64,000 nt of DNA from an uncultured Bacilli bacterium (lineage in GTDB: Bacteria; Bacillota_I; Bacilli_A; RF39; UBA660), in assembly GCA_944331935.1 (NCBI GenBank), contig CALVIV010000002.1, forward strand, positions 770 to 64,769. The letters run 5' to 3'. How positions within the stretch are numbered: position 1 is the stretch's first letter; each line of letters starts with the position of its first letter. The notes under the pieces were generated by a model. It was given only the letters and a program-made list of their open reading frames with translations, made no database searches and was not told the DNA's origin. Shown piece after piece: positions 9,047 to 53,634 of the stretch. The position numbers and the translations under genes are program-made.

Positions 9047-9122
9047 GGGGAATTAGCTCAGCTGGGAGAGCGTCACGTTTGCACCGTGAAGGTCAGGAGT
9101 TCGATCCTCCTATTCTCCACCA
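9047..9122 (+). tRNA. tRNA-Ala (UGC)
   Basis: Cloverleaf read by hand. Acceptor GGGGAAT/ATTCTCC with G3:U70, anticodon loop TTTGCAC, TPsiC GTTCGATCC, encoded CCA. Confidence 0.95.
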
Positions 9123-46603: not shown

Positions 46604-47866
46604 TTATTCCTTTCTCCAATTATTTGGTTCATTATAAATTTTATTGGTTCCTTTAACATCAAATCTTTGAGTTTGTTGATTATACTCAAGAGTTAGAATC
46701 CCAGTTTGACCATTTCTATTTTTACCAATTATTACCTCTATTTCTTCTACTTTCATTTCAATTCCTTTGTAATAATTTTCATTATGTAGCATTAAAACTG
46801 TTGTAGCAGATTGCTCTAATTCTCCAGTTTCTTTAAGATCACTAATTTTAGGTCTCTTATCTTTTGTGTTTTCAGAATTTCTATTAATCTGAGCGACTAG
46901 AAAGATAGTACAGTCATAATCTAATGATATTTGTCTTAATTCTTTAACAATAGCAGTTGTCTTCTCATATAGAGATTTAGTCTTATCGTTACTTCCTATT
47001 AATCCTACATAGTCAATAAAAGCCAATGTATGCCCTTGTTTACTTTCTTCAATAATTCTCTTTCTAATGCTAGAAATAGTTTGACTTCTACTAATGACCT
47101 TGATATTTTTATTAGCAATGGCTTTACTACCTTTAATCAACTGTTCTCTCTGATACTCAGTTGCAGGATTACCATGATAACTGATACGAATTTTGGTATT
47201 TATTCCTACTAATCGTTGATATACTTGCTTATCGCTCATTTCCATGTTGAATAAAATACAATTATATCTATCTGCTAAATCTTCCATTAAGTTCAAAACA
47301 AAACCTGTCTTACCTATACCCGGTCTAGCTGCAACCACAACTAGATCATGCTCTTGTATATTTGCATATTTAGATAACTTTTCAAATCTAAAATTAATCC
47401 CTTTATTTTTAGAATTTATTATCTTAAATACTTCTTCTCCAGTTAATTTATTAGCAGACGTTTTAATACTTAAAGCTTCATACTTATGAATAGATGTTAA
47501 TAGCTCTTCTTGTGATATTTGATTATTTTTAAACTTATCAATAGCACTTAAAATTAAATCGTTTACATATCTTTCAAATAGTAATTCCTGATAGTAATCA
47601 AACCTATTACCAAATGAATTTGTCATAATATTAACCATTTTTGTAATTATTACTTCTTGATTAAATCGTTGATCAAATAAATGCTTATATTTCTCTCCTA
47701 AAGCGATTAAATCTATGTTTCTGATATCTTGATATTGCTGTTTTAGAAGTTTAACTATAAAACGATTATCTTGGTTTTTAAAACAGTCATCTGGAATAAC
47801 TAATTTACCAATATTTTCAGGATGCAATATTAAGCAACCTATTACTTCATCTTCTAAATCTAGCAT
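46604..47866 (-). CDS. DnaB-like replicative helicase
   Basis: Walker A ARPGIGKTGF, Walker B AFIDYVGLI, and QINRNSE. Confidence 0.85.
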   Translation of the reverse strand: MLDLEDEVIGCLILHPENIGKLVIPDDCFKNQDNRFIVKLLKQQYQDIRNIDLIALGEKYKHLFDQRFNQEVIITKMVNIMTNSFGNRFDYYQELLFERYVNDLILSAIDKFKNNQISQEELLTSIHKYEALSIKTSANKLTGEEVFKIINSKNKGINFRFEKLSKYANIQEHDLVVVAARPGIGKTGFVLNLMEDLADRYNCILFNMEMSDKQVYQRLVGINTKIRISYHGNPATEYQREQLIKGSKAIANKNIKVISRSQTISSIRKRIIEESKQGHTLAFIDYVGLIGSNDKTKSLYEKTTAIVKELRQISLDYDCTIFLVAQINRNSENTKDKRPKISDLKETGELEQSATTVLMLHNENYYKGIEMKVEEIEVIIGKNRNGQTGILTLEYNQQTQRFDVKGTNKIYNEPNNWRKE

Positions 47867-48546
47867 TATTCTAGCCTCCGATAATGATATCCTTTATTAT
47901 CTTCACTTTGTTGTTCTTTACGTTTCTTTAAGTGCTTTTTAATAGAATTAACATCTTTTAAATTAGCTTTCTCCCACTCATAAAGAATTTTATCAGTATA
48001 TTTAACATTATAAACTTGATTAAGAACTGTTTCTTTAATAGCCAGTTTTATGATTTCAGGATTATATTCCCATGAATTAATAAATTCAACTTCAGATGAA
48101 GATAATGTTCTTCCAAATTCTTTTTCTGCAAATTCTAATACATTAACATTAACATTAACATTAGCATTTACATTTACATTATCATTTACATTTACATTAG
48201 GTTTTTTATTTTTTAACCTATGGTTTTTATTTTCAAAACCACTGGTTTTTTTATAGTTTTCTTCTTCTGAAACTATAGTTTCTTCATAGTTATTAGATAC
48301 GTTTTCATCATCCTTTTTAGATGGTCTTCCACCCTTTTTACCATCCTTTTTTCTCTTAGTATTAGCATCTAATTGAGGCTTAACTAGCTTGAACATTCTT
48401 GTTAATTCTTTAGATAATTCATTAGGTGGTTTACCATCTAATGAATAGTTAATAATCGCCTCATAGAAAGCTAATCTATCTTTATCATCCATATCTTCAA
48501 CCGAATCCCTGAAACTGTCATAAAAAACAAAACTATTTTGTACCAT
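47866..48546 (-). CDS. DnaD-like replisome organiser / replication initiator
   Basis: N-terminal FVFYDSFRDSVEDMD...AIINYSLDG. C-terminal DnaD-like LSSSEVEFINSW...YTDKILYEW. Internal (NV)n tract. Confidence 0.65.
   Translation of the reverse strand: MVQNSFVFYDSFRDSVEDMDDKDRLAFYEAIINYSLDGKPPNELSKELTRMFKLVKPQLDANTKRKKDGKKGGRPSKKDDENVSNNYEETIVSEEENYKKTSGFENKNHRLKNKKPNVNVNDNVNVNANVNVNVNVLEFAEKEFGRTLSSSEVEFINSWEYNPEIIKLAIKETVLNQVYNVKYTDKILYEWEKANLKDVNSIKKHLKKRKEQQSEDNKGYHYRRLE
48141..48200. repeat. ten tandem CATTWN hexamers inside the DnaD-like gene
   Basis: CATTAA x3, CATTAG, CATTTA x2, CATTAT, CATTTA x2, CATTAG. Encodes NVNVNDNVNVNANVNVNVNV. Confidence 0.9.
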
Positions 48547-48563: not shown

Positions 48564-48821
48564 TTAATTTGCATTTATCTTACTTATCTTTTTTAAATAA
48601 GAAATATTTATACGATAGTAATCAACTACCCTTTCCATTGGAACTAAGTTACTAGGTAGTTCAAAACCTTCTTCTTTTATTTGCTTCCTCAGTTCATTAA
48701 AATCATTCCTTGCATATTCCATACATTTACCACTAATCTTTTGCATATCACTTCTTGTAGCCCATTGTTTATTTATTACTTCTAAAAGTTCAGAGGCATT
48801 AAGTTGTTTAAATTTAGACAT
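48564..48821 (-). CDS. small DNA-binding-like early protein
   Basis: Start at the ATG at 48821 after GAGGTGG. Confidence 0.5.
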   Translation of the reverse strand: MSKFKQLNASELLEVINKQWATRSDMQKISGKCMEYARNDFNELRKQIKEEGFELPSNLVPMERVVDYYRINISYLKKISKINAN

Positions 48822-48822
48822 A

Positions 48823-49023
48823 CTACTTACCACCTCTTAGCATATAGTTTCTAACTTCATAATAACTACAGATAGAACCTTTATCTTGATCACACATATT
48901 TGCATACTTAATAAAGTCATCACTTTTATTAAATAATAAATGAGTTAAAATAAAGACAATAGAAATTAAAACAATTACTACTATCAAAATCTTAACCCAC
49001 TTTCTTAATCTTAATTTTTTCAT
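48823..49023 (-). CDS. small single-TM protein
   Basis: Start moved to the internal ATG at 49023 (MKKLRLRKWVKILIVVIV...). The longer form has no SD and would cover a promoter and a repeat motif. Confidence 0.4.
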   Translation of the reverse strand: MKKLRLRKWVKILIVVIVLISIVFILTHLLFNKSDDFIKYANMCDQDKGSICSYYEVRNYMLRGGK

Positions 49024-49045
49024 AATATCAAATCCCTTCTTAGTC

Positions 49046-49074
49046 TTGACCGACTCTTTATATTTTTTTATATT
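49046..49074 (+). promoter_or_regulatory. plus-strand (anti-early) sigmaA-type promoter
   Basis: TTGACC (49046-49051), 17 nt, TATATT (49069-49074). Confidence 0.45.
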
Positions 49075-49080
49075 TGATTT

Positions 49081-49157
49081 CCTAATCATTTACTGATATA
49101 CTTTAGTTGCCCTTATGGGCGGAAAAAGAGGTGTTTCTAATGTTAGAAACATTTTTG
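49081..49157 (+). ncRNA. candidate ~75-nt antisense sRNA
   Basis: Predicted start about 7 nt after the -10 box. Hairpin GCCC-TTAT-GGGC, then GTTTCTAA/TTAGAAAC followed by T5. Confidence 0.3.
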
Positions 49158-49438
49158 TCCTTGCCCTGCCTAGATGCCTAACTATTAAGGATTACCATGT
49201 CCAATAATAGTTATAAGGGCTACCATACCTGTAGGTCTTAACAGCTATGGGGCAAGTTAAGTTCTAATAGAGAAAGATAACTCGTAAATGTTAAGTAATA
49301 GCAACTAGATGCTGGTAATGTCTGGGGTATCTATCAGAAGTGTGAGACCAATGATAAATACTGCTATTAATCTAGTATTAAACTCTTGAATAGCTAAGTA
49401 TTACCAGTGCTTTTCTATTCTCGTATTGCTTGAAATCA
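49158..49438. ncRNA. ORF-free, helix-rich region (candidate structured RNA or cis-regulatory leader; strand unresolved)
   Basis: Nested 7-8-bp long-range pairings: 49160-49167/49249-49256, 49180-49187/49205-49212, 49312-49319/49400-49407, 49363-49368/49389-49394. No ORF with an SD. Confidence 0.45.
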
Positions 49439-49648
49439 TTATTGCTGGCTGGCGATTTTGATTTCTTTTAATTTGTTTAAATCCAAATCAAATACTATTG
49501 CTATTTTTACTAATTCATCTGCTGTTAATTTTCTCTTATTGTTTAGAACTAAGCTTATCTTACTCTGACTTATACCTGTTTTTTTCTCTATCTCATACTG
49601 AGATATACTTTTATTTTCAAAATATTTTTTTAAATAATTAGTTATCAT
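49439..49648 (-). CDS. XRE-family HTH protein (early)
   Basis: ISQYEIEKKTGISQSKISLVLNNKRKLT. Confidence 0.75.
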   Translation of the reverse strand: MITNYLKKYFENKSISQYEIEKKTGISQSKISLVLNNKRKLTADELVKIAIVFDLDLNKLKEIKIASQQ

Positions 49649-49656
49649 TTGAACTC

Positions 49657-49776
49657 CTATTTATTCTCTTTTTCATATTCAAGAATAATTTTTAGTAACT
49701 CTACTTTATCTTTTCCAGTTAATACTTTCATCTTATCAATTAAATCTTTAATCAATACTTCTTTTAATTCTTCCAT
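49657..49776 (-). CDS. small 39-aa early ORF
   Basis: Own translation MEELKEVLIKDLIDKMKVLTGKDKVELLKIILEYEKENK. Strong SD AGGAGGAG. Confidence 0.45.
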   Translation of the reverse strand: MEELKEVLIKDLIDKMKVLTGKDKVELLKIILEYEKENK

Positions 49777-49812
49777 TTATAACTCCTCCTTTCTTCTCCT
49801 TGACCGACTTTT

Positions 49813-50046
49813 TTACTCCTTTATATGAGTATTCTCATATATTGATTTAAAAAAAATATATAAATCTGTATTATACGCATCTTTTAAGATTTTCTCTAAT
49901 GTACATACTTTAATTTTTATTTTATTGTTTTCGTATTCTGATAAGGTTTGAGCATATATACCAGTTTTTTCTTCAACTTCTTTCAAGCTCAAATTATTTC
50001 TACTTCTAATAGCTCTTAATTCATTACCTATGAAATTTGAATACAT
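49813..50046 (-). CDS. Cro-like XRE HTH protein
   Basis: Start at the ATG at 50046 after TAGGAGGG. Contains LSLKEVEEKTGIYAQTLSEYENN. Divergent from the cI-like gene. Confidence 0.75.
   Translation of the reverse strand: MYSNFIGNELRAIRSRNNLSLKEVEEKTGIYAQTLSEYENNKIKIKVCTLEKILKDAYNTDLYIFFKSIYENTHIKE
49822..49841. promoter_or_regulatory. distal operator copy
   Basis: TATATGAGTATTCTCATATA, a near-perfect palindrome with the same core as the two boxes at 50076-50122. Confidence 0.55.
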
Positions 50047-50071
50047 ATATTTTTCCCTCCTATCTAATTTC

Positions 50072-50158
50072 ATTTTATATGAGTATTCTCATAATGTCAA
50101 TAGCAAATATGAGTATTTTCATTTTTTTATTGTATTTTACATTAGTTTGGGTTATACT
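50072..50158. promoter_or_regulatory. lysis/lysogeny switch: divergent promoters with two operator boxes
   Basis: Leftward promoter TTGACA (50100-50095), 17 nt, TAAAAT (50077-50072), with operator TATATGAGTATTCTCATA (50076-50093) in the spacer. Second box ATATGAGTATTTTCAT (50107-50122). Rightward promoter TTGTAT (50130), 17 nt, TATACT (50153). Confidence 0.6.
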
Positions 50159-50181: not shown

Positions 50182-50823
50182 ATGAGTTATTTTAATAGTA
50201 ATCTTCCCTTCATAAGAAAGAAAAAAGGGATTTCTCAAACCGAGTTAGCTGAAAAAATAGGTGTAGATCAATCAACTATTTCTCTTTGGGAAAAAGGAAT
50301 GGATACTACAGTAGATAATGCAATTAAGGTTGCCGAAGTACTAAATGTATCTATACCAGAATTTTTAGGTAAAGATTTAAGATTTGACAATGCCAATATA
50401 ATAGACGTGAATTCTGACATAGTCAAAATACCTGTATATGGCACTATTAAAGCTGGAATACCTATAGAAAGCCAAACTGATATTATTGATTATGTAGATA
50501 TACCTAAAAGTTGGACTAAAGGTGATAAAAAGTTTTATGGTCTTAAAATTAGTGGAGATTCTATGTTTCCTAAGTATCAAGATAAAGATATAGTTATTTT
50601 TGAAAAAACTGATGATACTACATTATATAATGGCAAAGATTGTGCCGTTATGATAAATGGAACTGAATCAACATTTAAAAAAGTTTTAATTAACGACCAA
50701 GGAATTGTATTACAAGCCTATAATATGGCTTATGGAATTAAAATGTTTTCTAAAGAAGACGTTATAAATAAGCCTATTAAAATTGTAGGTATTGCTCGTG
50801 AAAAGAGGACTAAAATTGATTAG
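50182..50823 (+). CDS. cI/LexA-like repressor (HTH + S24 peptidase)
   Basis: GISQTELAEKIGVDQSTISLWEKG plus GDSMFP and a C-terminal beta domain. Confidence 0.85.
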   Translation: MSYFNSNLPFIRKKKGISQTELAEKIGVDQSTISLWEKGMDTTVDNAIKVAEVLNVSIPEFLGKDLRFDNANIIDVNSDIVKIPVYGTIKAGIPIESQTDIIDYVDIPKSWTKGDKKFYGLKISGDSMFPKYQDKDIVIFEKTDDTTLYNGKDCAVMINGTESTFKKVLINDQGIVLQAYNMAYGIKMFSKEDVINKPIKIVGIAREKRTKID

Positions 50824-51500: not shown

Positions 51501-52652
51501 ATGCCAGTTTATAGAGAAAAAAATAAAAAGAAATGGACTAAAGATGGAAGATCATATTACTTTAGATGCTACTATACAGATATGTATGGTAATAGAAAAC
51601 AAAAAGAAAGTAAATTATATAAATTAAGTAGTGAAGCGAAAGAAGCTGAAAGAGAATTTTTAAATAATGTTGAAAAGAAAGATATAACAGATACTAATAT
51701 ATCATTTGAGTCAGTTTTTTATGAGTGGCTATCTATAAAAGAAAGAGCCGTTAAATGTACTACTTATTATCGTTTAAAACAAAATTTAACAAAACATATA
51801 TTAAATTTTTTCAGTAAATATAAATTACACTCAATAAAAATGGATACAATTAATAGTTGGTACTCATATTTAGAAAATGCTAATATCGGTGAAAAGTATC
51901 AGAACTCATTAATTGGCTATTTAAAAGAAGTTTTGACATATGCTAAGGACAATTATGACTTTGATATAAAAATCGTTTCTAGAATACAAAAAAAGCGTAT
52001 TTCAAAGGATGTTACAAAAGTTAATGATGCTCTATGGAATTTTTGGACAGATAAAGAATTTGATATATTCATAAAGTGTGTTGATGACCCTTTCTATTAC
52101 ATAATTTTTAATTTTCTTTATTATACAGGTCTTAGAATGGGAGAGCTAATTGCTTTAACTTGGAATAACGTAAATTTAGAAAGAAAAGAAATATATATAA
52201 AAGACAATTTTACAAACAAAGTAGAAGGACAGGTGTTTGCAATAGTGGATCCTAAATCCGATAATTCAATTCGTATTGTTGATTTAGACGATGACACTGT
52301 TGCAATGTTATCTAAACATTATGAACACGAAAAAAAATTATATAATTTTTCAAATGAGTGGTTTGTTTTTGGTAATGTTAAATATGTAGCACCTACCACA
52401 TTTGCAAACCATCTTGATAAATATATTGAACAGGCAAAAAAAGAACATACTAATTTTAAACGAATAACACCTCATGGTTTTAGACATTCGCATGCATCGC
52501 TATTAATTAATTTAGGATGTGATAGTCGTGAAGTTGCTGCGAGATTAGGAGATACTGTTGAAGTTATAGAAAGTACATATTATCATATGTTTCCTGATAA
52601 GAAAAAACATACCATAGATGTATTAAATAACTTTAAAAAAAGAGGTAAATGA
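51501..52652 (+). CDS. int: tyrosine integrase
   Basis: 383 aa. Contains LRMGELIAL...HGFRHSHASLL...Y. The stop lies 56 nt from the att core. Confidence 0.9.
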   Translation: MPVYREKNKKKWTKDGRSYYFRCYYTDMYGNRKQKESKLYKLSSEAKEAEREFLNNVEKKDITDTNISFESVFYEWLSIKERAVKCTTYYRLKQNLTKHILNFFSKYKLHSIKMDTINSWYSYLENANIGEKYQNSLIGYLKEVLTYAKDNYDFDIKIVSRIQKKRISKDVTKVNDALWNFWTDKEFDIFIKCVDDPFYYIIFNFLYYTGLRMGELIALTWNNVNLERKEIYIKDNFTNKVEGQVFAIVDPKSDNSIRIVDLDDDTVAMLSKHYEHEKKLYNFSNEWFVFGNVKYVAPTTFANHLDKYIEQAKKEHTNFKRITPHGFRHSHASLLINLGCDSREVAARLGDTVEVIESTYYHMFPDKKKHTIDVLNNFKKRGK

Positions 52653-52708: not shown

Positions 52709-52727
52709 CTGGTGGCTCCAGCGGGAA
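52709..52727. repeat. attR core (3' end of the intact tRNA-Phe)
   Basis: Identical to 15958-15976. Confidence 0.85.
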
Positions 52728-52784
52728 TCGAACCAGCGACACAAGGATTTTCAGTCCTTTGCTCTACCGACTGAGCTATGAAGC
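52709..52784 (-). tRNA. tRNA-Phe (GAA)
   Basis: Reverse complement GGCTTCATAGCTCAGTCGGTAGAGC...CTGAAAA...GGTTCGATTCC...CCA. Confidence 0.95.
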
Positions 52785-52796
52785 CAAAAATAAAAA

Positions 52797-52873
52797 ATGG
52801 CGGTTCCGACGGGGCTCGAACCCGCGATCTTCTGCGTGACAGGCAGACGTGTTAACCAGCTGCACCACGGAAC
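52797..52873 (-). tRNA. tRNA-Asp (GUC)
   Basis: Acceptor GGTTCCG/CGGAACC, anticodon loop CTGTCAC, encoded CCA. Confidence 0.95.
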
Positions 52874-52874
52874 C

Positions 52875-52950
<76 letters not shown>

Positions 52951-52965
52951 GATATAAAATTCTAA

Positions 52966-53058
52966 ATGGCGGAGGAAAAGGGATTCGAACCCCTGCGCCG
53001 CTTGCGCGACCTCCCGGTTTTCAAGACCGGTCCCTTCAACCAGACTTGGGTATTCCTC
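52966..53058 (-). tRNA. tRNA-Ser (UGA)
   Basis: Long variable arm, anticodon loop CTTGAAA, encoded CCA. Confidence 0.95.
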
Positions 53059-53066
53059 CAAAATAG

Positions 53067-53155
53067 ATGGTGCCTAAGGTCGGACTTGAACCGACACGAG
53101 GGGTGAACCTCCCAGGATTTTAAGTCCTGTGCGTCTACCAATTTCGCCACTCAGG
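53067..53155 (-). tRNA. tRNA-Leu (UAA)
   Basis: Begins GCCTGAGTGGCGAAATTGG. Long variable arm, anticodon loop CTTAAAA. Confidence 0.9.
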
Positions 53156-53164
53156 CACATATAA

Positions 53165-53240
53165 ATGGTGACCCGCATGAGATTCGAACTCATGACCCTT
53201 TGATTAAAAGTCAAATGCTCTACCGACTGAGCTAGCGGAT
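53165..53240 (-). tRNA. tRNA-Lys (UUU)
   Basis: Anticodon loop CTTTTAA, TPsiC GTTCGAATC, encoded CCA. Confidence 0.95.
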
Positions 53241-53255
53241 CATACTACTAATTAG

Positions 53256-53330
53256 ATGGTTGCCTCGGTTAGATTCGAACTAACGCATGTCAGAGTCAAA
53301 GTCTGATGCCTTACCACTTGGCTACGAGGC
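53256..53330 (-). tRNA. tRNA-Gln (UUG)
   Basis: U1-A72 start TGCCTCG, anticodon loop CTTTGAC. Confidence 0.9.
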
Positions 53331-53351
53331 AATAACAAATGAGTATAAACT

Positions 53352-53435
53352 ATGGTGGAGAGAGATGGATTCGAACCATCGAACCCGAAGGAACAGATTT
53401 ACAGTCTGTCGCGTTTAGCCACTTCGCTATCTCTC
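53352..53435 (-). tRNA. tRNA-Tyr (GUA)
   Basis: Variable arm present, anticodon loop CTGTAAA. Confidence 0.95.
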
Positions 53436-53447
53436 CGACATAATAAA

Positions 53448-53523
53448 ATGGTGCCGAAAACAGGAATCGAACCCGTAACCTACTGATTACAAATCAGTTG
53501 CTCTACCAATTGAGCTATTTCGG
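53448..53523 (-). tRNA. tRNA-Thr (UGU)
   Basis: Acceptor GCCGAAA/TTTCGGC, anticodon loop TTTGTAA. Confidence 0.95.
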
Positions 53524-53536
53524 CAACATATAATAA

Positions 53537-53613
53537 ATGGTGGGCGATATAGGACTCGAACCTATGACCCCTTGCTTGTAAGGCAAGTGCTCTAACCAAC
53601 TGAGCTAATCGCC
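53537..53613 (-). tRNA. tRNA-Val (UAC)
   Basis: Acceptor GGGCGAT/ATCGCCC, anticodon loop CTTACAA. Confidence 0.95.
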
Positions 53614-53634
53614 CAAAAACCGTTTGACATGATT

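Follow-up and report, generated by a model that had tools for sequence, protein, structure and literature searches.

A putative large structured RNA encoded in the lysis/lysogeny region of a Bacilli prophage

The intergenic gap and its putative RNA gene

The sequence analysed here, called the window throughout, is a stretch of 64,000 nucleotides (nt) from contig CALVIV010000002.1 of an uncultured Bacilli bacterium; coordinates are window positions unless a relative is named. With 28% G+C, the window is a GC-poor piece of chromosome which contains a prophage and, on the basis of YunB and a sigma factor, the host is a spore-forming member of the Bacillota. Within the early region of the prophage a gap of 415 nt (49024-49438) separates the gene of a 69-residue XRE-type helix-turn-helix (HTH) protein, hereafter HTH69 (49439-49648, minus strand; Pfam HTH_3, E = 6e-10), from the next early gene, which is also read from the minus strand. 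Conserved signals and a covarying fold, described below, point to the segment 49109-49470 of the plus strand as a free-standing gene for a non-coding RNA of ~360 nt, with predicted start and end. That a structured non-coding RNA is encoded on this strand is in our opinion highly probable. The RNA and its relatives appear to make up a hitherto uncatalogued family of large prophage RNAs with an intricate fold, the core of which looks distantly related to the PGK RNA motif of Rfam.

An earlier note, made from the letters of the window, had singled out the gap as free of open reading frames (ORFs), richer in G and C than its surroundings and rich in potential helices, and these observations hold. 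No gene is found between the HTH69 stop codon (49439) and the next early gene, and the gap was left empty, at the same length of 415 nt, by gene callers on six independent metagenome contigs encoding an identical HTH protein. Only two ORFs, of 30 and 26 codons, occur on the plus strand of the gap, neither of them conserved. A conserved small ORF was considered as an alternative explanation of the conservation, and none was found: reading frames of at least 22 codons differ among relatives in position, frame and start codon. The G+C content of 49109-49470 is 0.362, against 0.282 for the window (z ~2.0, in the top 3% of windows), and the GC skew turns positive in the gap. The minimum free energy of folding is lower than that of shuffled sequences on either strand (z = -3.5 for the plus, -4.0 for the minus strand), and 0 of 100 shuffles were equally stable. 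The next early gene (48823-49023, minus strand; 66 residues) is given the start chosen by the gene callers, a methionine codon at 49023. An alternative frame of 88 codons would begin at 49089, within the RNA promoter, and the longer product has no relatives in IMG/VR and belongs to no Pfam or PHROG family.

Relatives were sought in IMG/VR and in GTDB genomes using the flanking HTH69 protein as seed. HTH69 homologues are followed by an ORF-free gap of 225-500 nt, which in most loci aligns with that of the window. Further copies were collected from viral and metagenome contigs by a DNA pattern made of two conserved blocks (CTATGRGG...GARAGNNAACTYNTA), true members being told from chance matches by an nhmmer profile; the scan of metagenomes returned at least 120 stretches, mostly chance matches among those listed. 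After removal of duplicates the family includes at least 29 distinct members, with lengths of 336-489 nt and 48-95% identity to the copy in the window. Their sources are gut (rabbit, chicken, mouse and human) and rumen-type samples, and the metagenome-assembled genomes (MAGs) among these are labelled Bacilli, Bacillota or Clostridia. Promoters were counted in 29 members, and structure was analysed in an alignment, A3, of 26 full-length sequences. In one relative (L014:2250-2714) the 5' part of the RNA matches both strands about one point in the nhmmer search, which looks like a palindromic assembly artefact at a contig end.

The putative promoter of the RNA (49074-49102, plus strand) includes a -35 hexamer TTGATT (49074-49079), a 17-nt spacer and TGATATACT, the -10 region being of the extended type (TGaTATACT, 49094-49102); from its position, transcription would start at ~49109. 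The same arrangement is found in 26 of the 29 members, and the spacer is always 17 nt long. The -35 hexamer is TTGATT in 20 members, the -10 hexamer TATACT in 15 and TATAAT in 11, and the TG extension occurs in 17. The similarity among members sets in sharply with the -35 hexamer, the preceding 60 nt being unrelated, and conservation stops at a hairpin resembling an intrinsic terminator (49432-49465, followed by a U-run, UUUU, to 49469). This hairpin overlaps the last codons of the convergent HTH69 gene, so that the two genes lie tail to tail. All 26 full-length members finish with such a hairpin, of -6 to -19 kcal/mol, and a U-run.

The signals proposed earlier were different ones. A plus-strand promoter, TTGACC-17-TATATT (49046-49074), had been thought to fire into a bidirectional terminator at 49133-49150 and to yield an antisense RNA of about 75 nt. 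The promoter-like site exists, and a scan lists it together with the adjacent TTGATT site, but it occurs only in the window and in a relative 95% identical to it (L081). The hairpin is real, and its position is conserved: it is the core of the helix called P2 here (49127-49156), the G.U-rich lower stem of which pairs into a UUUUU run, and single-sequence folds place a hairpin of variable sequence and length at this point in all 26 leaders. The role assigned to it does not stand: it is not flagged by a terminator scan, and in short-type members the stem is reduced to 4 bp, for which reason P2 is not regarded as a conserved terminator. Given the conserved promoter at 49074-49102 and the nature of P2, the transcript would be of ~360 nt rather than ~75 nt.

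Covariation and fold of the RNA

Indels and pseudoknots kept RNAalifold, when run on MAFFT alignments of the whole domain, from recovering more than a few helices. Alignment A3 was therefore scanned for stacks of column pairs which stay paired while changing, and the resulting structure was then counted. It includes 59 pairs in 11 helices. Overall, 89.6% of the cells are canonically paired. In shuffled alignments the figure is 72.0%, with none of 500 reaching the observed value, and it drops to 35-47% after sliding the partners by 1-3 columns. Both sides change in 45 of the 59 pairs, and the covariation score (0.517) exceeds those of shuffles (0.204) and of slid partners (at most 0.143). Two long-range helices, P7 and P8, and a kissing loop came out of the unbiased column-pair scan, and helix P4 was recovered independently by RNAalifold. 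Counts for P2 and for parts of P5 and P9 (68-78%) are underestimates due to a 1-nt misalignment by MAFFT, and single-sequence folds were used for these hairpins instead. The pattern of compensatory changes argues that this elaborate fold is kept by selection. It also assigns the fold to the plus strand: the same pairs are canonical in only 80.5% of the cells when read on the minus strand, where the U.G and G.U pairs of helix P3, invariant or nearly so, would turn into C.A and A.C mismatches.

The RNA opens with a hairpin, P1 (UUGCCC UUAU GGGCGG, 49107-49111 with 49118-49122), paired in 84% of the cells of the 26 members, with 3 of 5 pairs changing on both sides. Downstream of P2 the segment GCCCUG (49163-49168) pairs with UGGGGC (49248-49253) to form P3. 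The helix is paired in 100% of the 26 sequences, with GC to UA (17/9) and CG to UA (15/11) exchanges, and is a pseudoknot since it joins a segment lying outside P8 to one lying inside the loop of P4. This is the first of four long-range complementarities listed in the earlier note, CTTGCCCT/GGGGCAAG, the inner 5-6 bp of which are paired, with the exchanges given above, in all 26 homologues. RNAalifold proposed in place of P3 a local UAUGRG/CUCNUA pairing, which shows one-sided changes only. The 5' leader may also pair in alternative ways, as P1 (UUGCC/GGCAA) or as a competing helix P2' (GGCAAG/CUUGCC; GGCAGAU/AUCUGCC in L001), and in long-type members P2' overlaps P3.

Two long-range helices organize the body of the molecule. 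P8 joins CUAGAU (49170-49175) to AUCUAG (49370-49375), is paired in 97% of the cells, and 5 of its 6 pairs change on both sides; P7 joins UAAUAGC (49296-49302) to GCUAUUA (49363-49369), is paired in 98%, and 6 of its 7 pairs do so. P7 and P8 have adjoining 3' strands, and could therefore stack coaxially. Between the 5' strand of P8 and P4 lies a region (49176-49236) of one or more insertion hairpins, missing in short-type members and differing in sequence and length among long-type ones. To it belongs the second of the complementarities noted earlier, AACTATTA/TAATAGTT, in a hairpin confined to some long-type members. P4 (CUUAACA, 49237-49243, with UGUUAAG, 49289-49295), in which all 7 pairs change on both sides, encloses the 3' strand of P3 and a near-invariant hairpin, GAG-AAAGAUAA-CUC (49270-49283); its internal loop is clamped by the P3 pseudoknot.

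P5, P6 and P7 are joined by a three-way junction. P5 (49305-49311 with 49319-49325; 6 of 7 pairs changing on both sides) exposes a 7-nt loop, CUGGUAA (49312-49318), with consensus CUnnnAA. In P6, GGUAUCUAUCA (49326-49336) pairs with UGAUAAAUACU (49352-49362); the first three pairs, all of which change on both sides, are paired in 96% of the cells, and the rest of the helix is taken from the sequence of the window. P6 closes a variable domain, larger by 0-200 nt in other members. In the window this place is taken by nothing more than an 11-bp hairpin. In long-type members (for example L005:3178-3604, minus strand; L008, L011, L024 and L054) P6 holds an extra domain of 100-200 nt with several hairpins, which starts with the conserved sequence GGGAUGCCAAAAUCCAAAACCAAG.

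Near the 3' end a further hairpin, P9 (49388-49400 with 49408-49420), carries the loop UACCAG (49402-49407), complementary to CUGGUA (49312-49317) in the P5 loop. This kissing loop is paired in 98.7% of the cells, and 5 of its 6 pairs change on both sides. The two loops are complementary in 26 of 26 members, in at least nine different combinations (e.g., CUUUCAA/UUGAAAG, CUAGUAA/UUACUAG, CUAUCAA/UUGAUAG and CUAACAC/GUGUUAG). The interaction had been glimpsed earlier as the complementarity CTGGTAAT/ATTACCAG, of which 6-7 bp are paired in 96-100% of the 26 homologues, and is now resolved into a contact between two hairpin loops. The fourth proposed pairing, GCTATT/AATAGC, fared otherwise: it is paired in 62% of the cells with no compensation, and its arms belong to P7 and P9 instead. 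A sequence, UAAGnnnUACCA, occurs three times in the RNA (49186-49197, 49214-49225 and 49395-49406). The third copy corresponds to the P9 arm and the kissing loop; the first two sit in the variable hairpin, are not retained in the 95% identical relative, and could be alternative partners of the P5 loop.

A covariance model of the core (P4, the GAG hairpin and P5), built from 24 members excluding the window and its closest relative, hits the window at 49234-49328 (plus strand) with 84.4 bits (E = 6e-15), the next best match in the 64 kb scoring 16.8 bits. Among the matches listed, the model retrieved no member beyond those found by nhmmer.

Kinship with catalogued RNAs

When the window was scanned with Rfam covariance models on both strands, only tRNAs reached the gathering threshold, and in 19 loci of relatives the only such hit was an unrelated DUF3800-VII RNA. 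ROOL, GOLLD, OLE, raiA and the other catalogued large RNAs yielded no match at E <= 10 in 48800-49700, nor any at gathering threshold in the window and the 19 loci. The idnO motif gave a minus-strand match of 21.5 bits (threshold 100; E = 0.92), which was put down to chance. The earlier statement that the region matched no known family is thus borne out at threshold level, and searches of the literature returned no description of this RNA.

Below threshold, one motif deserves attention. The PGK RNA motif of Rfam (RF03040; 92 nt, annotated as Cis-reg) scores 42.8 bits in the window (E = 8.7e-4 on 901 nt), short of the 50.8 bits of its gathering score, and full-length hits (model positions 1-92) are found at the homologous site in five members, at 44.8, 43.5, 42.8 (the window), 38.4 and 31.3 bits; short-type members give no PGK hit. 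The resemblance extends to the architecture. As in PGK RNA, an outer stem, corresponding to P4 (stem 1 of the Rfam alignment), surrounds a near-identical hairpin, GAGAAAGaAAACUC, and is followed by a 3' hairpin, all three helices being aligned over positions 1-92. The 3' loop is of 7 nt in either case, CUGAUAA in PGK and CUGGUAA here (consensus CUnnnAA). The PGK-like core of the RNA is made of P4, the GAGAAAGAUAACUC hairpin and P5, and P4 and P5 covary in the family. Yet, the RNA described here is 4-5 times larger, and parts left unpaired in the model are engaged in tertiary contacts, CUAUGGGG in the P3 pseudoknot and the P5 loop in the kissing loop. Moreover, the RNA appears to be a terminated, free-standing prophage gene. 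The PGK motif has been described upstream of phosphoglycerate kinase genes in metagenomes. No such position is seen in the window, where the RNA is followed by a terminator-like hairpin and by the convergent HTH69 gene, and no co-directional gene lies immediately downstream; ORFs of the window were screened for pgk in part. On these grounds the RNA is not assigned to PGK, and the PGK motif is probably a fragmentary relative of it. In the parts examined of the text and supplements of Weinberg 2017 the motif is unmentioned. A query for true PGK RNAs in viral contigs (GAGAAAGNAAACTC...CTGATAA) returned five loci, taken as chance matches because none gave an Rfam match at E <= 0.1.

With ROOL and GOLLD the RNA shares general traits: all are large, pseudoknotted and borne by phages or prophages, and have no assigned function or protein partner. 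ROOL and GOLLD are often found near tRNA islands, and the integrase of the present prophage abuts an array of ten tRNA genes. In contrast, sequence and fold are unrelated, no Rfam hit to either class being found; the RNA is smaller, with 336-489 nt against roughly 580 and over 800 nt; and it resides in the lysis/lysogeny control region, not in the tRNA island. In ROOL and GOLLD, kissing loops initially recognized by covariation have turned out, in cryo-electron microscopy structures, to bridge separate molecules (PMC12286853). By analogy, the RNA might represent a new class of ornate phage RNAs in which the P5/P9 pairing links molecules into a homo-oligomer, expressed from the lysogeny side of the switch as an RNA-only accessory factor; the PGK motif of Rfam would then be a mis-annotated fragment of an RNA of this kind. 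We consider this scenario doubtful.

Comparison with other phage RNAs leads to similar partial likenesses. Like lambda OOP, P22 sar, P1/P7 c4 and P4 CI RNA, the window RNA runs from the lysis/lysogeny control region against lytic early genes, and extends at its 3' end into a convergent early gene. These antisense RNAs are ~70-100 nt long, fold into simple stem-loops and base-pair to a defined target; the RNA described here is of ~360 nt, has a covarying tertiary architecture, and in one of its genomic arrangements (that of L042, see below) overlaps no gene and has no antisense target, whereas a conserved antisense geometry would be expected of an RNA of their kind. The phi29 pRNA is likewise a phage-encoded structured RNA with two complementary, covarying loops. 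The loops of pRNA pair between molecules, forming a ring. No Rfam pRNA hit was obtained at the thresholds used, and the present phage is temperate, with the gene lying in the immunity/early region rather than next to packaging genes at one end of the genome.

Genomic arrangements, possible roles and neighbouring features

The RNA gene occurs in two arrangements. In the first, that of the window, replication and early genes are transcribed leftwards away from the RNA promoter, the RNA and its terminator point rightwards, HTH69 and cro follow in convergent orientation, and cI and int are directed rightwards. HTH69 homologues (62-86% identity) flank the RNA in all members of this type. In the second, found in L042, L051, L054, L114, L116 and L164, leftward early genes and cro are followed by the RNA with its promoter and terminator, and then by a separate promoter-like site, cI and int. 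The RNA thus lies between a divergent cro and a co-directional cI, and is antisense to no gene; its promoter differs in sequence (TTGTCT-17-TATAAT). In every member with detectable neighbours the RNA is co-oriented with the downstream cI and int genes, and opposed to HTH69, cro and the DnaD-like gene.

The RNA slot behaves as a cargo site, and the RNA is dispensable. Of 20 distinct HTH69 relatives with sufficient flanks, about 15 carry it. L012 (= L006) and L018 retain the HTH69 gene, the promoter, the 5' hairpin P1 and the terminator, with cargo other than the RNA; in L018 (76-391, minus strand) the cargo is a Shine-Dalgarno sequence with a basic ORF of 46 residues (MAKHSCRTTSSRVASKASDIMRDDRYGSKAKSVAGSALSQRATKRK). 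L002 has an HTH69 relative without the RNA and retains a promoter variant, TTGATA, and no promoter was found in L009 and L017, in which an HTH69 relative also lacks the RNA. Similarly, in L191 (1850-2520), the CI protein of which is 73% identical to that of L190, the promoter (of the L042 type), the terminator and the cI promoter are the same, and ~110 nt of unrelated sequence replace the RNA body. Since close relatives have promoter and terminator but not the RNA, the RNA is an accessory cassette. The HTH69 homologue of L009, a MAG contig, has no adjoining RNA of the present family, and a DUF3800-VII RNA (RF02967) lies at L009:138-237 (plus strand; 58.6 bits, above threshold).

Taken as a whole, the data are best explained, we believe with moderate confidence, by a free-standing, highly structured prophage RNA of ~360 nt, belonging to an uncatalogued family and serving as lysogeny-side accessory cargo acting in trans. 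The last component is tentative, and we give it close to, and not above, an even chance. The RNA would act by virtue of its three-dimensional shape, either bound to a protein or assembled with itself; action in trans appears the most likely mode in view of the conserved fold and of the second arrangement, where the RNA has no antisense target. It could be a moron-like cargo, which would contribute to lysogen fitness, immunity, exclusion, defence or tuning of the switch, because the slot is filled by small ORFs or left empty in other relatives. In the arrangement of the window, head-on transcription and full complementarity to the early transcript would in addition dampen read-through from the regulator to the replication genes, since the RNA is transcribed towards the early genes from inside their operon and the next of these has no minus-strand promoter-like site in front of it. 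HTH69 may control the RNA promoter. This is speculation, suggested by the co-conservation of the promoter spacer TTCTAAYTATT with HTH69; in the window no second copy of the promoter/spacer motif, a putative HTH69 operator, is found above chance.

Several points weigh against this explanation. A generic promoter scan found promoter-like sites at the RNA locus no more frequently than expected by chance, and a scan with a strict terminator consensus flagged none at the RNA locus or at the 3' hairpins of relatives, so that both assignments rest on conservation rather than on the scans; start and end of the transcript are deduced from sequence. The structure was derived and counted on the same MAFFT alignment, a circularity which slide and shuffle controls lessen and do not remove, and cell counts are inflated by the phylogenetic non-independence of the members. 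Every relative comes from a metagenome or a MAG, and 49024-49438 finds no match in 50,697 deposited phage records (BLASTN, 'distant' mode). Finally, a function in trans is a guess, and a purely cis-antisense role keeps some plausibility in the window's arrangement.

According to the latter explanation, the RNA would be a lock of the lambda OOP or P22 sar kind, in which convergent transcription and duplex formation matter and the fold is incidental. The window offers a suitable setting. The RNA gene lies head-on between the regulator and the replication genes, its 3' end overlaps the 3' end of the HTH69 gene, and no minus-strand promoter-like site is detected by the promoter scan in 49000-49520, so that the early gene at 48823-49023 can be reached only by read-through antisense to the RNA gene. 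Furthermore, since L012 and L018 place other cargo after the same convergent promoter, function may reside in the promoter as such. Yet, a lock of this type needs no conserved fold, whereas the pseudoknot, two long-range helices and the kissing loop are compensated down to 48% identity, and the RNA of the L042 arrangement, set between divergent cro and co-directional cI, is antisense to no gene. We regard the lock as unlikely, and the short antisense immunity RNA suggested in the earlier note meets the same obstacle. Alternatively, the RNA could be the cis-acting 5' leader of a lysogeny-direction transcript, similar to that from lambda PRE, and would decide whether transcription continues past its own terminator into cI and int; in the window, such an extended transcript would be antisense to HTH69 and cro on its way. 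The co-orientation of cI and int in both arrangements, the cis-regulatory annotation of the related PGK motif and the mutually exclusive 5' pairings (P1 or P2', and P2' or P3 in long-type members) are in line with a leader. Still, a hairpin and a U-run end every member, and no conserved alternative pairing able to disrupt the terminator was found; in L042-type loci a separate promoter-like site lies between the terminator and cI, L191 has promoter, terminator and cI promoter but not the RNA, and ~700 nt of antisense genes lie between RNA and cI in the window. A leader of this kind is thus distinctly improbable.

A leader in the opposite direction, a riboswitch or a put-like antiterminator of the minus-strand early transcript which would govern read-through into the replication genes, had been the first reading offered in the earlier note. 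It fits the location of the region inside the early operon, and the minus strand folds well too (z = -4.0). The conserved promoter and the terminator-like hairpin are nevertheless both on the plus strand, opposite to the early genes, pairing is better on that strand in the cell counts and in the P3 wobble pairs alike, and the L042-type element is not inside the early operon, all of which makes a minus-strand leader very improbable. We give hardly any credit to a DNA-level element, such as a replication origin or a set of protein-binding sites, or to a small protein gene: the DnaD-like and DnaB replication genes are adjacent and two short ORFs (30 and 26 codons) exist in the window copy, but compensatory changes including G.U pairs indicate an RNA, no iterons were found, and position, frame and start codon of the ORFs vary among members. 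Of the three interpretations formulated earlier, only the free-standing non-coding RNA finds support, in a promoter and a terminator-like hairpin of its own, in the absence of a conserved ORF among members, and in a fold backed by covariation across the 26 sequences of homologous prophage regions.

To our knowledge, few large, intricately folded RNAs of bacteria and phages are known, and most of them have no assigned function. ROOL, GOLLD and OLE have turned out to be assemblies made of RNA alone, and each new class has been informative for RNA structural biology. The present family has useful traits: it is compact (336-489 nt), with a clear pseudoknot and a kissing loop for which many natural compensatory variants are available, and it occupies a fixed regulatory spot of temperate phages, pointing in the direction of cI and int, with natural 'knock-outs' carrying the same promoter and terminator. 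These traits make a role in lysogeny, immunity or defence directly testable. They also suggest that the PGK motif of Rfam merits re-examination as part of a larger phage RNA, and not as a metabolic cis-regulator.

The remaining genes of the prophage fall into two modules. In the early lytic module, on the minus strand, a Cro-like HTH gene (49813-50073) is followed by a 39-residue ORF, lying between cro and HTH69, and, past HTH69, the gap and several small ORFs, by genes for a DnaD-like replication protein (47866-48546) and a DnaB helicase (46604-47866). The DnaD-like protein contains an (Asn-Val)n low-complexity stretch, NVNVNDNVNVNANVNVNVNV. The lysogeny module, on the plus strand, includes a CI-type repressor of the S24/HTH type (50182-50823), a 168-residue ORF located between cI and the integrase gene, and a tyrosine integrase (51501-52652). 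The palindrome TATGAGTATTCTCATA occurs three times, at 49824-49841, 50077-50093 and 50107-50123, two copies lying between cro and cI and one inside the 3' end of cro; the three copies are probably CI/Cro operators. A 27-nt direct repeat (TCCyTTCTT..TTGACCGACT) is found at 49033-49059 and 49787-49813, beside the ribosome-binding sites of two minus-strand early genes. Read on the plus strand, each copy provides a -35 hexamer TTGACC, separated by 17 nt from TATAT(T/G). The first copy corresponds to the promoter-like site of the earlier note, present only in the window and L081. Since the -10 hexamer of the second copy overlaps the operator inside cro, this copy may be a PRE-like antisense promoter. 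The ten-tRNA array (52710-53614, minus strand) directly adjoins the integrase gene, and is likely the attachment region of the prophage; a solitary tRNA-Ala gene is found at 9047-9122 (plus strand).

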